Sequence record: SRR22947725_2610
DNA: 58,079 nt
Direction: 5' to 3' (one strand)
The stretch's first letter is position 1; each line of letters begins with the position of its first letter. A program made the position numbers and the translations under genes. The notes under the pieces are model-generated. The model did no database searches, was not told the DNA's origin, and was given only the letters and a program-made list of their open reading frames with translations. Shown piece after piece: positions 27,907-53,873 of this stretch.

Positions 27907-29367
27907 CTATTTAACATTGAGTGGAAATCTTAGTCTCGCTTCAGCGCCCTGCTGAATAAAGCGATTTTGCAAGCTAATTTCTCCTCCATGGAGCTTCATT
28001 ATTTTTCTAACAAACCTCAACCCTAAACCGTTCCCCCTAACGCCTGTATCTGGCCTTGTCACTGAGAAAAACCTTGTAAACAGTTTATTGATAACTTGAG
28101 GAGGTATTCCGGGCCCATCATCAAGAACAATGATAGAAATAGCAGAGTTCGTTTGAGAGGCTTTAATTGTAATTTTTCCTGAAGCGGGTGTGAAATCTAA
28201 TGCGTTGTTGACGATATTTCCAATGGCCTGAACTAAAAGTATTTTTTCAGCCTTCAGTGTTGCATTGCTGCTAATTTGAATATCGATATTGAGATCCTTA
28301 TCTAGTATTGTTTTAACTCGACTGGGCTCCTTTAAAACGGTATTGACAGTCTCTTTAATGCTCAGCGTTTCGACGTTTTTAAGTGCCTCACGCCTTTCAA
28401 TTCTTGATAAGTCAAGTAGCCTATTGACAAGTAGGTCCATATGCTTGTTCGACTCTAGGATGTTCTCTACAAAGCGCTTTCTTTGAGCATCACTCATCGG
28501 ACTTAAAAGGTTTTCAGCGGTCAGTTGTATACCTGTTATAGGTGTTCTGAGCTCATGAGCGAGAGTGTCTATATATTGTTCAACGTCATCTTTCAGTTCA
28601 ACGTTTGCTCTAGCATCTTTAATTGTTGTTGCAAGCTTATTGAACTGATTATTAAGGTCAGGCATCAAAACATCTTCACCGCTGAAGAGGTTGGCCGTAT
28701 ATTTTTGAACGCGGTTAATATTTCTAGATATACGATAACTACCCAAAAAGCCAAAGAGTAAGGAAATAACAAAGATATAAAAGATAAATCTTAGGAGATA
28801 GCTCTCACCCATTAATTCAATGAGAGGAGCAACCACAACAACGGTTCCTATTATTTCACCATTATTTCCATAAATAGGATTTGAGGCATTTAAAAATCTT
28901 GATTTCAGAAAGTATTCTATGACCACGCCTCTGGCTTTTTGAGTTCCAGCTACTTTTTCCGTTACTACACTTGTTGAATCTATCATGCCGCTCAGAGCAG
29001 ATTCAACCTCATTAGCATCTCGCATGTCTGTACCTAGAGTAAGTCCTCTTGAATCCAGAACCAAAAGACCATCTTTGTCAGTGACATAAATCGCTAAGTT
29101 TTCAAGTTTTTGGGGGCTGTTAGTATCAATCGTATTCCTTTGAGATCGAAGGTAATTGACAATCAAAGTTTCAAAGGTTTCTAAATCAATTTCACCATCC
29201 TTGTTGTTCTGAGAGGCAACACGGCTCATAAGGCTTGATACCTCAACCATAATCGATTTTGCAGACTCAAAAGTTGTTCTTTGAGCAAATAACCATAAAA
29301 GGCTTGAACTTACAATAAAGTAAAGAAGAAAGAGTTTTGTGCCAATATTAAGCTTGAAGCGCTTCAT
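27907..29367 (-). CDS. creC: two-component sensor histidine kinase, CreC-like
   Basis: YVTD..G.L.LDS, VEQYIDTLAHELRTP H-box, NALDF, DDGPGIP, GLGLRFV. Confidence 0.75.
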   Translation of the reverse strand: MKRFKLNIGTKLFLLYFIVSSSLLWLFAQRTTFESAKSIMVEVSSLMSRVASQNNKDGEIDLETFETLIVNYLRSQRNTIDTNSPQKLENLAIYVTDKDGLLVLDSRGLTLGTDMRDANEVESALSGMIDSTSVVTEKVAGTQKARGVVIEYFLKSRFLNASNPIYGNNGEIIGTVVVVAPLIELMGESYLLRFIFYIFVISLLFGFLGSYRISRNINRVQKYTANLFSGEDVLMPDLNNQFNKLATTIKDARANVELKDDVEQYIDTLAHELRTPITGIQLTAENLLSPMSDAQRKRFVENILESNKHMDLLVNRLLDLSRIERREALKNVETLSIKETVNTVLKEPSRVKTILDKDLNIDIQISSNATLKAEKILLVQAIGNIVNNALDFTPASGKITIKASQTNSAISIIVLDDGPGIPPQVINKLFTRFFSVTRPDTGVRGNGLGLRFVRKIMKLHGGEISLQNRFIQQGAEARLRFPLNVK

Positions 29368-30032
29368 TCAATAAGGCTGTATCCAATACCTCTATGAGTT
29401 TCAATATATTCATTAGTTTCATCCAACTCATGAAGACGTTTGCGTATTGATTTGATATGGGTATTAATAGTTTTAATATCTGAGCCATGAGGACGATCCC
29501 AAATAATACTCATTAAGTACTCCCTAGAGTGTACCCTGTTAGGGTTTTTAACTAAATGCGAGAGTATCTTGAATTCAGCGGGTGTCAGTGTAAGGTCCTG
29601 ATCCATGAACACGACTCTTTGCATAGCGTGATTTATACTAAATTTAGAGTCACCACTTTTAACCTCAGGTTTGACCATTCTGAGTTGAGCGCGAACATGT
29701 GCGACAACCAGTCTTGGGCTTAGCGGTTTGGTAACGTAGGCGTTAGCACCAAGTCCTTCAAGGCCCAGAACCTGGTCTGATTCATCATCCCTTGCAGAGA
29801 TAATAATCACTGGCAAGTTAGATTTTTCACGGACTTTTCTTAGTAAATCAAATCCACTCATGTCAGGCAAGCCGACATCGAGTAAGATTAAATCAACCTC
29901 ATTATCTTTATGAAACTCGAGTGCTTCCTTTCCATTGTCGAACCATTTACAATTAAAAGAATCTTTTTCTAAAATAAAGCAGATACTTTCAGCGATTGTT
30001 TTATCATCTTCAACTATTAAGATTGTTTCCAT
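29364..30032 (-). CDS. creB: OmpR-family response regulator, CreB-like
   Basis: VEDD, LDVGLPDMSGF, TKP, wHTH with HIKSIR and THRGIGYSL; 4-bp overlap with kinase. Confidence 0.78.
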   Translation of the reverse strand: METILIVEDDKTIAESICFILEKDSFNCKWFDNGKEALEFHKDNEVDLILLDVGLPDMSGFDLLRKVREKSNLPVIIISARDDESDQVLGLEGLGANAYVTKPLSPRLVVAHVRAQLRMVKPEVKSGDSKFSINHAMQRVVFMDQDLTLTPAEFKILSHLVKNPNRVHSREYLMSIIWDRPHGSDIKTINTHIKSIRKRLHELDETNEYIETHRGIGYSLIE

Positions 30033-30095
30033 ATTTAGATCATTAATTATTTAAGAAAAGTGGCATTGTAAATTAAAACTAAACAAAAGAAAGAA

Positions 30096-30162
30096 TCTTC
30101 ATAAAGTCTTCATCAAAACTCCATATATTCAACATTTGACAACAAGTGTTGGAGACTATTAT
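30096..30162 (+). promoter_or_regulatory. four 11-bp-phased direct repeats plus sigma70-like promoter
   Basis: TCTTCAT 30096, TCTTCAT 30107, ACTCCAT 30118, TCAACAT 30129; TTGACA 30136-30141; TATTAT 30157-30162 (15-bp spacer). Confidence 0.65.
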
Positions 30163-30166
30163 GTGC

Positions 30167-30436
30167 ATATTGTTTTTAGTTTATTAGAGATTTTTCTGTA
30201 ACTACTACCCCTTTAAGTTACAGATTAAACAAATCGTTAATACTCTAATCTTTAGGTTAGATTATACATACCATTTTGTAAGTCTCTAATAGCTAAAAAC
30301 AATATTTAGATATTTAGTTTATGTATCAGTTTTTAAAGAACCTCGAATACCTATGTCATTCTCTCTCCGTTTGACAACTGAGGTACCCGCTTTAGTTGGC
30401 AGGTTACTCCTACCGGCCAACTAAAGTACTTTTCTT
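30167..30436 (+). ncRNA. candidate structured small RNA, family not recognised
   Basis: ~23-bp closing stem 30167-30190/30283-30305 with nested hairpins, further hairpin 30348-30385, terminator at 3' end, promoter at 5' end. Confidence 0.55.
30390..30436 (+). terminator. intrinsic terminator
   Basis: CTTTAGTTGGC / GCCAACTAAAG 11-bp stem followed by TACTTTTCTT. Confidence 0.7.
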
Positions 30437-30451
30437 AACTAACAATATTAA

Positions 30452-30616
30452 ATGCAAAAAACAATGCCTAACAATTCGCTTAAAAGATCTACTGTTTCAT
30501 ATTGCAAAAGAAATAACATTGATGAAAAACAGCTTATCAAAGCTATGAATTGGTATCTTAGTGCTAAACGTGGTGCGAAGGATTACTCAAATATTGATTC
30601 TTTTTTAAAGCCTTAG
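30452..30616 (+). CDS. small basic hypothetical protein (54 aa), not in ORF track
   Basis: MQKTMPNNSLKRSTVSYCKRNNIDEKQLIKAMNWYLSAKRGAKDYSNIDSFLKP; no clear RBS. Confidence 0.4.
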   Translation: MQKTMPNNSLKRSTVSYCKRNNIDEKQLIKAMNWYLSAKRGAKDYSNIDSFLKP

Positions 30617-30639
30617 ATACTATTTCTTAATTTTTGTGA

Positions 30640-31164
30640 ATGACTAGATTATTCAAACAATTCATTTTTGTTGCACTTCTATTACCTATTTCATTTGCTT
30701 CTCTAGCGAAGATCAAGGTCGGCAGTAAAGCTCCAAATTTTACTCTTAGTGATCAAAATAGTATTCAGCACCAACTCAGTGATTATGAAGGAAGCTGGGT
30801 TATATTGTACTTCTATCCAAAGGATGACACCCCAGGTTGTACTACTCAGGCCTGTGACTTTAGAGATGCAGTCAAAAGAATTATTGCAAGCAAGTCAAAT
30901 GTCTTTGGTGTTAGCCTTGATAGTGTTGAGTCTCACAAGCGTTTTGCTGATAAAAATAACCTCCCATTTTCACTACTATCTGATGAGTCCGGAGAGGTCT
31001 CTGAGGCTTACGACTCTCTTAATAACTTTATGAGCTTTAAGAGCGCTAAAAGAAACACGTTTATTATTGATCCAGATGGAAAAGTTGCAAAGATTTATCT
31101 TTCTGTCAAGCCAAGTACTCACTCTCAGATGGTGCTTAATGATTTGAATCAACTTCAAAATTAA
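30640..31164 (+). CDS. bcp: peroxiredoxin BCP/PrxQ with N-terminal signal-like segment
   Basis: LYFYPKDDTPGCTTQACDFRD. Confidence 0.9.
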   Translation: MTRLFKQFIFVALLLPISFASLAKIKVGSKAPNFTLSDQNSIQHQLSDYEGSWVILYFYPKDDTPGCTTQACDFRDAVKRIIASKSNVFGVSLDSVESHKRFADKNNLPFSLLSDESGEVSEAYDSLNNFMSFKSAKRNTFIIDPDGKVAKIYLSVKPSTHSQMVLNDLNQLQN

Positions 31165-43009: not shown

Positions 43010-43135
43010 ATCCTTAACTCACCACCCATCGTAGTATTAAGTAAATCAATTTGACACGTATCGGACTAATCTAGAAGAAACACCGTTGCGAGGGCAGCGT
43101 TGGAATCACACCAACTTCCGTCGTCAAATTGAGTC
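43010..43135 (-). ncRNA. compact cobalamin riboswitch (class II / variant type)
   Basis: minus strand TCAATTTGAC-GACGGAAGTTGGTGTGATTCCAACGCTGCCCTCGCAACGGT...AGTCCGATAC-GTGTCAAATTGA, then hairpin whose CGATGGG can kiss CCCTCG. Confidence 0.88.
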
Positions 43136-43276
43136 AGATTATATCTTTTTTTTAAAAATGCGCAATAGTTTAATTACTAAAGTTTTTTTTATTCATATAC
43201 ATAATAATAACAATACTTTTAAGTGGATTAAGTCTTAGGTAAAATACACCCAAAACATTCAACTAAAGCTTTACTA

Positions 43277-53761: not shown

Positions 53762-53873
53762 AGTACTAGTATAATCCACCCAAATTAAAGGAATAGTTCA
53801 CCCCACGAACTAGGTATTTGTTCCATATTGTGTACCTTAGGATTTCCCTTAAAACACTAAAAAGGAGGAAGGT

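Follow-up and report, generated by a model that had tools for sequence, protein, structure and literature searches.

Staphylococcal RNAIII is a multi-hairpin RNA of ~514 nt whose gene faces away from a two-component operon, direct repeats for the response regulator being located between the promoters; it is independent of Hfq, also encodes a protein, and directs C-rich loops against ribosome-binding sites. The streptococcal csRNAs (~90-150 nt) are controlled by CiaRH, are present in multiple copies and carry anti-Shine-Dalgarno-like sequences, and in RNAIII, RsaE and the csRNAs the C-rich loops pair with ribosome-binding sites. Examples of small RNAs (sRNAs) that derive from messenger RNAs (mRNAs) are CpxQ, from the 3' untranslated region (3'UTR) of cpxP, a gene divergent from cpxRA (PMC4817254), and OxyS of Enterobacteriaceae, which Krieger et al. 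(2022, PMC8825220) trace to a peroxidase mRNA and which remained in the OxyR regulon. The element described here occupies positions 30167-30436 (+ strand) of the DNA stretch SRR22947725_2610 (58,079 nucleotides, hereafter the window), between a CreB-like response regulator gene (creB) with a CreC-like kinase gene behind it and, downstream, a small conserved open reading frame (orf54) and a peroxiredoxin gene (bcp). The host genus is the marine Pseudothioglobus (SUP05 clade, Thioglobaceae), a member of an abundant group of marine bacteria for which the literature searched contained no paper on small RNAs. What is chiefly new is where this RNA comes from: the 5' and 3' ends of a creBC-linked gene for an SH3-and-anchor membrane protein (TIGR04211), now lost, have been joined in it, and intermediates are preserved.

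Like RNAIII, the element has several hairpins, is divergent from a two-component operon, is preceded by direct repeats, carries C-rich loops, occurs without Hfq and was ancestrally protein-encoding; unlike RNAIII, it belongs to another phylum, is 270 nt rather than ~514 nt long, and leaves the Rfam RNAIII model unmatched. A two-component-associated promoter and anti-Shine-Dalgarno-like sequences are shared with the csRNAs, from which it differs in being single-copy, 270 nt long and without an Rfam match, and in having a cre-tag-type repeat where the csRNA promoter repeat is a different one. The likeness to OxyS consists of a noncoding RNA that stands in place of a coding gene, is divergent from a regulator, retains the regulator sites and has relatives with the intact gene. 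Here, however, the gene (SH3-anchor), the regulator (CreBC-like) and the lineage are different and the function is putative; in addition, both mRNA ends (5'UTR with early codons, and 3'UTR) are fused and intermediates occur within one genus. CpxQ is resembled by the sister-genus gene, which is divergent from an envelope-type two-component operon and has conserved 3'UTR hairpins and a putative terminator after an AU-rich stretch, and RNase E/G is present in the Thioglobaceae genomes examined. Against this likeness, there is no sequence or Rfam similarity and no Hfq, the parent coding sequence is gone in the genus of the window, and release of a 3' part is a proposal.

The + strand of 30160-30440 was predicted to fold with a minimum free energy (MFE) of -75.7 kcal/mol, compared with -44.7 +/- 4.5 kcal/mol for 200 dinucleotide shuffles (z = -6.85; 0/200 as good), and the - strand of the same region folded less well (z = -4.86). 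Each stem that had been listed in the first-pass annotation of the window was located at its coordinates and recurred in the + strand MFE fold. The features of the RNA, whose 5' end is predicted at ~30167-30170, are as follows:

30167-30190 (+), 5' arm of stem P1, from the MFE fold; 20 pairs, with 97.7% of cells paired in the 15-genome alignment
30195-30224 (+), hairpin P2, with loop ACUACCCCUUUA at 30204-30215; 3/6 pairs compensatory
30246-30264 (+), small internal hairpin, from the MFE fold; variable
30265-30309 (+), coding relic Y-I-P-F-C-K-S-L-I-A-K-N-N-I-stop, overlapping the 3' arm of P1
30283-30305 (+), 3' arm of P1, from the MFE fold and the consensus alignment
30306-30334 (+), linker at the collapsed coding region (~470 nt missing); unconserved
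30335-30385 (+), first part of the 3' domain, AAAGAACCUCGAA; former 3'UTR, with ACCUC/GAGGU around P4
30354-30376 (+), hairpin P4 (MFE stem span 30348-30385), with loop UUCUCUCUCCGUU at 30359-30371; from the MFE fold
30389-30427 (+), hairpin P5, with loop UUACUCCUA at 30404-30412; 15-pair stem from the MFE fold
30428-30436 (+), tail of P5, ACUUUUCUU; possible partial terminator together with P5

The sequences of 15 genomes were aligned using MAFFT (alignment A1), and the RNAalifold consensus contained 52 pairs. Across this alignment 96.7% of cells paired and compensatory changes were present at 16/52 pairs; none of 500 column shuffles reached the observed values, and slid controls paired at 27-42%. 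Covariation in relatives, which the first-pass annotation had proposed as a check, was present in the form of these compensatory changes. Within the genus 5/13 pairs of P5 were compensatory, and in one clade a single-base deletion in each arm of P1 left the pairing intact (a compensatory indel). The loop core of P2, ACCCCUU, was unchanged in 15/15 aligned sequences. ACCUC (30340-30344) pairs with GAGGU (30380-30384) and thereby encloses P4, and the hairpin at 30246-30264 was not conserved: L013 has lost it, and L014 and L015 carry a replacement or an expansion. One-sided changes in stems were mostly from U-A to U-G as read on the + strand, with few A-C cells, which argues for a + strand RNA; the same argument, made earlier from G-U pairs (A-C on the - strand) in the window alone, thus extends across species. 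The element is a real, conserved, structured RNA of the + strand.

A covariance model (R1) was built from the 15-sequence alignment. Outside the genus, matches to R1 were paired ~575 nt apart beside a creB ortholog (49-58% identity). One match of each pair was the 5' half of R1 and the other its 3' half, with an open reading frame (ORF) between them; given that the two matches are different halves, they do not represent a duplication. Thirteen sister-genus loci (four genera) contained an ORF divergent from creB, which was 207-212 aa long in 12 of them and only 179 aa, from a later ATG, in L065. The order at these loci was creB, the divergent SH3-anchor ORF, a sortase-like ORF of 145-155 aa (146-147 mostly) and an orf54 homolog. 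Scores against TIGR04211 (SH3_and_anchor, cut-off 65 bits) were 83.7 for L061, 83.1 for G114 and 76.5 for G108. In the window, no + strand ORF of at least 30 aa was present in 30165-30395, hence no ORF there above the TIGR04211 cut-off, and no conserved short ORF was found inside the RNA (an ATG at alignment column 240 occurred in just 6/15 sequences).

The 5' half of R1 aligned to the 5'UTR and early coding sequence of the intact gene and the 3' half to its 3'UTR. Specifically, the 5' arm of P1 corresponded by homology to the 5'UTR, which in sister genera contains the GGA ribosome-binding site, P2 corresponded to the former start codon and signal-peptide codons (aligning with ATGCG...CTCC of the intact gene), and the 3' arm of P1 corresponded to former codons ~36-46 (I-A-K-N-N-I-I). 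The relic at 30265-30309 aligned with K-I-P-M-R-A-D-D-V-I-A-K-N-N-I-I of intact SH3-anchor proteins. The module of ACCUC, P4, GAGGU and P5 started directly after the stop codon of the intact gene, so that in sister genera P4 and P5 have the architecture of a 3'UTR-derived sRNA. By homology, these alignments show the RNA to be the promoter, 5'UTR and first ~45 codons of the SH3-anchor gene fused to its 3'UTR. The first-pass annotation had read the region as an RNA, which stood, and had missed its descent from a protein-coding gene of which sister genera still have the intact form.

Decay of the gene was graded within Pseudothioglobus. The ancestral ATG and a frame of 73-75 aa were retained at six loci (interrupted after 19 codons in L075), the ATG was retained with stops after 13-75 codons at six further loci, and the ATG was lost at the 16 loci of the clade of the window. 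The cre-linked paralog was absent as coding sequence from 3/3 Pseudothioglobus genomes, in which a canonical TIGR04211 gene (157-167 bits) was located elsewhere, and two genomes of the genus g32 contained both the canonical gene and the cre-linked paralog (76-83 bits). Based upon this distribution of paralogs and the graded decay, the parsimonious explanation is that Pseudothioglobus lost ~470 nt of coding sequence.

The sortase-like ORF located 3' of the SH3-anchor gene (e.g. L061:1580-2020, - strand; 146-148 aa) was present in the 13 sister-genus loci, and deep Pseudothioglobus clades (L016, L018, L019) had it too. In L061 it scored 45 bits against Pfam Sortase and 92 bits against the class GN sortase model, below the cut-off of 158, and was without the N-terminal ~35 model positions. 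Given that this ORF is absent from the clade of the window, two genes were lost there, not one.

Comparisons across genera were made using 47 distinct creB-linked loci (de-duplicated from 86, five genera), which were aligned as A2. P1, with 16-23 pairs, was present in the MFE fold of 44/47 loci, intact genes included; L017 and L076 were without it, and in L016 both arms were present with a 3-nt insertion that escaped the search pattern. Where the gene is intact, its protein varies at the codons of the 3' arm of P1 (K-N, K-D, K-S, K-G) through A-to-G changes that are compatible with G-U pairing. Third-codon-position conservation in the intact gene was 0.89 over P2 and 0.84 over P1, compared with 0.46-0.73 elsewhere, and amino-acid conservation over P2 and P1 was no higher than elsewhere. 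The lower part of P1 was better paired after the loss of coding than in intact genes, which is hard to explain without selection at the RNA level. P4 and P5, each with a CUCC, CCUC or CCCU loop, were present in 46/47 single-sequence folds with differing stems; the 47th locus (L016) was misplaced during extraction and aligned normally in A2. ACCUC/GAGGU was paired in 44-46/47 sequences depending on the pair, with a compensatory replacement in L065, and across the five genera 9/15 predicted pairs of the 3' domain were compensatory, all nine within P5. The RNA elements are thereby shown to have existed already in the intact mRNA of sister genera and to have outlived the protein.

The two Pseudothioglobus loci without P1 (L017 and L076) kept P4 and P5, and where the 5' domain would be, ~155-385 nt from the creB start, they contained mutually similar 75-aa ORFs with a faint D-D-I-T-I-T-I-E likeness to the SH3-anchor N-terminus. 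These ORFs may encode a small protein that has survived, or decay may have followed another route there.

At four-fold degenerate sites, creB and bcp were only 0.23-0.44 identical to the window, which is saturation. Identity to the window was 0.54-0.85 for the 5' domain of the RNA, 0.77-0.89 for the 3' domain and 0.18-0.58 for the linker, the last being close to the saturated synonymous sites (the 98% identical twin L001 was left aside in this comparison). Because synonymous sites are saturated and the RNA domains are 54-89% identical, purifying selection on the RNA is indicated. The nearest genome searched (G001, 98% identical over the intergenic region) held the region once, the remaining matches being chance hits of 17-34 nt, and strong DNA matches (E <= 1e-20) were obtained in 15/41 genomes searched, all of the same genus and always in the order creB, region, orf54, bcp. 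R1 matched one copy per genome in 34/43 genomes of the genus, including 15/15 genomes that were at least 90% complete; the nine genus genomes without a match were 53-84% complete. Across the family, matches were found in 52/122 Thioglobaceae genomes and 5/19 genera, and a search of the order comprised the same 122 genomes. The dispersed copies that the first-pass annotation had named as a possible sign of a miniature inverted-repeat transposable element (MITE) were not found, in G001 or in any genome matched by R1.

That annotation had also left the RNA without a family. No Rfam 15 covariance model matched it: at gathering score the whole window contained only tRNA, SAM-V and cobalamin matches, all away from the RNA, 29950-30700 searched at E <= 10 gave merely three chance matches to eukaryotic snoRNA/miRNA families (E 7.9-10), and the loci of five relatives gave 0 matches at E <= 0.1. 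The element is a new, strongly conserved RNA family with no member in Rfam 15 and with a clear candidate regulator.

The best NCBIfam matches of the regulator pair were CreB and CreC. Between creB and the RNA, the following features were recognized:

30065-30070 (-), TACAAT, candidate -10 box of creB with a presumed promoter role; ATTGTA invariant in 15/15 intergenic regions
30098-30124 (either strand), direct half-sites TTCAT at 30098-30102, TTCAT at 30109-30113 and TCCAT at 30120-30124, in 11-bp phasing between the divergent promoters
30135-30162 (+), proposed promoter of the RNA, with -35 TTTGAC/TTGACA at 30135-30141 and -10 TATTAT at 30157-30162; conserved blocks around a variable spacer

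The pattern T[TC]CA[CTA]-N6-T[TC]CA[CTA], which is a permissive regular expression, was present in 47/47 distinct loci at an offset of 60-80 from the creB start; half-sites were usually three in number and 11 bp apart, and the P1 arm began at an offset of 132-140. In deep Pseudothioglobus clades the repeat was exactly TTCAC-N6-TTCAC, which is the form of the cre/blr tag (TTCACN6TTCAC) given for the region upstream of creD in E. coli, Aeromonas and Pseudomonas (PMC4689548). The same direct repeat with the same 11-bp phasing thus lies beside creBC, as in those genera; here an SH3-anchor paralog or its RNA remnant would be controlled, through three half-sites, whereas in the known cases it is creD. 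The proposed RNA promoter consisted of conserved AACATTTGA and TAnnAT around an unconserved spacer, with the conserved start of the RNA 4-6 nt further, so that the -10 box noted earlier ahead of the 5' arm was recovered as TATTAT; such conserved blocks around a variable spacer are, as a sequence pattern, the signature of a promoter. The link between the RNA and the two-component regulator is strong, and control of the RNA by CreB is inferred from these sites.

The most conserved unpaired parts of the RNA were the three CUCC/CCCU-rich loops of P2, P4 and P5, and the other conserved unpaired part was the AU-rich stretch ahead of the 3' domain. The first-pass annotation had remarked upon C/U-rich loops, and CUCC/CCCU-containing loops were found in all three hairpins (for P4 and P5, in 46/47 folds). 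It had also considered an 8-nt match to the ushA ribosome-binding site to be at chance level, in agreement with a duplex energy of -17.9 kcal/mol compared with -19.0 kcal/mol for the best random 53-mer. A duplex scan of the window, using 51 crude, mechanically chosen gene starts, gave nothing above random 53-mers. By a crude count, an AGGA/GGAG/GAGG motif was located upstream of only 6/51 long ORFs of the window; strong ribosome-binding sites as a selective target class are a speculation. Hfq (PF17209), CsrA and ProQ were found in 0/5 genomes (G001, G020 and G048 of Pseudothioglobus, G108 and G114 of g32), which are 98-99% complete, with control genomes positive, and RNase E/G and RNase III were present in 5/5. 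These Gammaproteobacteria seem to be without all three classical RNA chaperones.

At about even confidence, 30167-30436 (+) is read as a single-copy, selectively maintained noncoding RNA gene that is the remnant of the creBC-linked TIGR04211 gene and acts as a CreB-driven riboregulator. Phosphorylated CreB would activate the RNA promoter. The active form, independent of Hfq and ProQ, would be the full-length RNA or a 3' part of ~100 nt that is cut off at the AU-rich linker. The three exposed CUCC/CCCU loops, which are similar to the 16S anti-Shine-Dalgarno sequence, would bind G-rich ribosome-binding sites by base pairing in a subset of mRNAs, and part of the transcription would pass P5 into orf54. 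The reality of the RNA is strongly supported and its action in trans is putative; a CreB-driven, chaperone-independent regulatory RNA is the most likely function. A broader version, held more tentatively, is that the transcript had two functions in the ancestor, as RNAIII does: it would have been the mRNA of a CreBC-induced SH3-anchor envelope protein and also, through anti-Shine-Dalgarno loops in its 5' and 3' parts, the noncoding arm of the CreBC response, and this regulatory function would have outlived the protein. If this were true, Pseudothioglobus would hold a stepwise natural series from intact gene through truncated ORFs to pure RNA, in which an mRNA becomes an sRNA, and the change would have taken place in streamlined marine bacteria that are without Hfq, ProQ and CsrA and have strong ribosome-binding sites in a minority of genes.

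Several results weigh against the CreB-driven riboregulator. Both regulator scores were below the NCBIfam equivalog cut-offs (CreB 238.7 against 273, CreC 293.2 against 356). Counted from the predicted start of the RNA, the direct repeats were located at ~-45 to -70, and counted from the presumed promoter of creB at ~-40 to -66; they could therefore act on one of the two promoters or on both, or in creB autoregulation only. A consensus promoter/terminator scan listed neither the proposed RNA promoter, because its spacer is 15-16 nt, nor P5, because of a 9-nt loop and an interrupted U run. With regard to targets, complements of the P4 loop (at most one mismatch) were not in excess over a reversed control in four complete genomes; G001 contained 7 other matches compared with 17 for the control, most of them inside ORFs, and only one of 12 contexts was at a ribosome-binding site (of a BMP-like lipoprotein gene in G048), which was not conserved. 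For the P2 loop, the complement (AAGGGGT with an ATG 3-9 nt further on) occurred 14-27 times per genome compared with 8-10 for the reversed control (G001, G020, G042, G048), and such a common sequence, enriched 2-3 fold, therefore looks like a generic variant of the ribosome-binding site and not a specific target. Of the two-component-controlled, base-pairing sRNA proposed in the first-pass annotation, the structured RNA and the cre-type promoter were supported, and the target search, which covered the 58 kb of the window and the pattern matches in other genomes, yielded no conserved target.

What follows P5 bears on a different reading, in which the RNA is a cis-acting leader. The gene downstream is:

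30452-30616 (+), orf54, small conserved ORF of 54 aa directly downstream of the RNA; matched by tblastn in 18 first-set loci

Under this reading, the RNA is the structured 5'UTR of an orf54(-bcp) transcript from the cre-tag promoter, with P5 as an attenuator or stabiliser and no targets in trans, and the conserved stems would control how the downstream genes are translated or how their transcript is processed or stabilised; it is a serious rival, at about one half of the weight given to the riboregulator. Its support comes in part from results that also count against the latter. The orf54 start lies 16 nt past the tail of P5 (25 nt past the stem), no separate promoter for orf54 is visible, and an ORF follows P5 within ~12-30 nt at every locus. 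What the first-pass annotation had proposed as a terminator stem with U-rich tail is, in the window, a 15-pair stem followed by ACUUUUCUU; across loci, a U-rich tail was present in 33/47 and missing in 14, including the six closest relatives. Given the missing U-tails and the nearby orf54, all or part of the RNA may be a leader. P4 and P5 of sister genera are intercistronic, between the SH3-anchor and sortase-like genes. Metatranscriptome contigs spanned the whole element in 4/4 runs, and the X1 and X2 contigs bridge the RNA into orf54 and bcp, with contig ends differing elsewhere (30485 in X7, 30498 in X6). The contig holding the RNA was deeper than flanking contigs, including those of orf54 and bcp, in two runs (550 compared with 2-258; 320 compared with 10-88), which argues weakly against a leader, the data being assembled unstranded contigs with one depth figure per contig and thus weak evidence of expression. 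Further points against it are that P1 and P2 were kept, and P1 became better paired, though the ribosome-binding site and start codon they enclosed are lost; that orf54 in the window has no Shine-Dalgarno sequence for CU-rich loops to mask; and that the CUCC/CCCU loop cores are constant while the downstream ribosome-binding sites differ. Leader and regulatory-RNA roles may coexist, and orf54 is probably co-transcribed with the RNA through read-through.

The remaining readings are less probable again. An RNA whose ACCUC/GAGGU helix and pyrimidine loops are bound by S1, a KH-domain protein or a nuclease, and which would titrate or recruit that protein instead of pairing with mRNAs, is improbable: ACCUC and GAGGU are conserved as sequence and not as pairing alone (44-46/47), one short motif is common to the three loops, as in sponge RNAs, and the searches with the P4 and P2 loops found no specific mRNA complement, while no candidate protein was identified and CsrA, Hfq and ProQ are absent from 5/5 genomes. 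It is very improbable that the region is a functionless pseudogene remnant in slow neutral decay. Such a remnant would agree with the derivation from a lost coding sequence, with the persistence of frames with stops and with the unconserved linker and inner hairpin; it is contradicted by RNA domains 54-89% identical beside saturated synonymous sites of the neighbouring genes, by compensatory substitutions and a compensatory indel, and by the presence of the RNA in 15/15 high-quality genomes of the genus. The least probable reading, with hardly any weight, is a GGA sponge of the CsrB/RsmZ type on the minus strand or a mobile inverted-repeat element. On that strand the loops read AAAGGGGU, GGAGAGAG and AGGAG and the region also folds well (z = -4.86), but CsrA was found in 0/5 genomes, the G-U wobble pairs of the + strand would turn into A-C mismatches if the - strand were the RNA, and the conserved promoter and the U-tail are both on the + strand; a MITE is opposed by one copy per genome in a constant syntenic place. 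Both were rejected, the sponge given that GGA motifs occur on the - strand only, the + strand is supported and CsrA is absent, and the MITE or dispersed repeat given a single copy and fixed synteny.

The locus is a natural case of a messenger RNA that has become a noncoding, probably regulatory RNA. It is a second case after OxyS, and an unusually well resolved one, of a regulatory-looking RNA that arose from a coding gene and kept the parental control, and it offers a test bed for RNA regulation in Gammaproteobacteria without the three classical RNA chaperones. If the RNA were only a leader, it would still be a case in which mRNA structure (the stem from the 5'UTR to codon 40) constrains protein evolution and survives gene loss.

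Among the neighbouring genes, creB occupies 29364-30032 (- strand). Within it, at 29844-29958, the assemblies of two studies were split into many short alternative contigs and restarted at 29941, which looks like a strain-variable patch in natural populations and not a transcript boundary. The gap upstream of creB, which had been put at ~600 bp, is a noncoding gap of 419 nt, because the conserved orf54 stands between the RNA and bcp. Homologs of orf54 are 49-66 aa long and are located 3' of the sortase-like gene in sister genera (e.g. L061:1444-1599, - strand). They are always at the end of the creB-linked cluster, overlap the end of the sortase-like gene in some sister genera, and share the family-wide conserved motif E-x-Q-(L/F)-x-x-A-x-x-W-Y-x-S-A; no match to orf54 was found in Pfam, NCBIfam or the ESM Atlas. 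The PrxQ/Bcp peroxiredoxin encoded by bcp (30640-31164, + strand) has a hydrophobic N-terminal extension of ~25 residues ahead of its AhpC-TSA domain (residues 27-151), which suggests an exported or membrane-tethered form. Elsewhere in the window, two riboswitches were identified, one of the SAM-V family at 53803-53870 (+ strand; 45.2 bits, gathering score 41) and one of the cobalamin family at 43036-43143 (- strand; 40.9 bits, gathering score 31.5), each directly upstream of a gene with an unusually strong G-rich ribosome-binding site.

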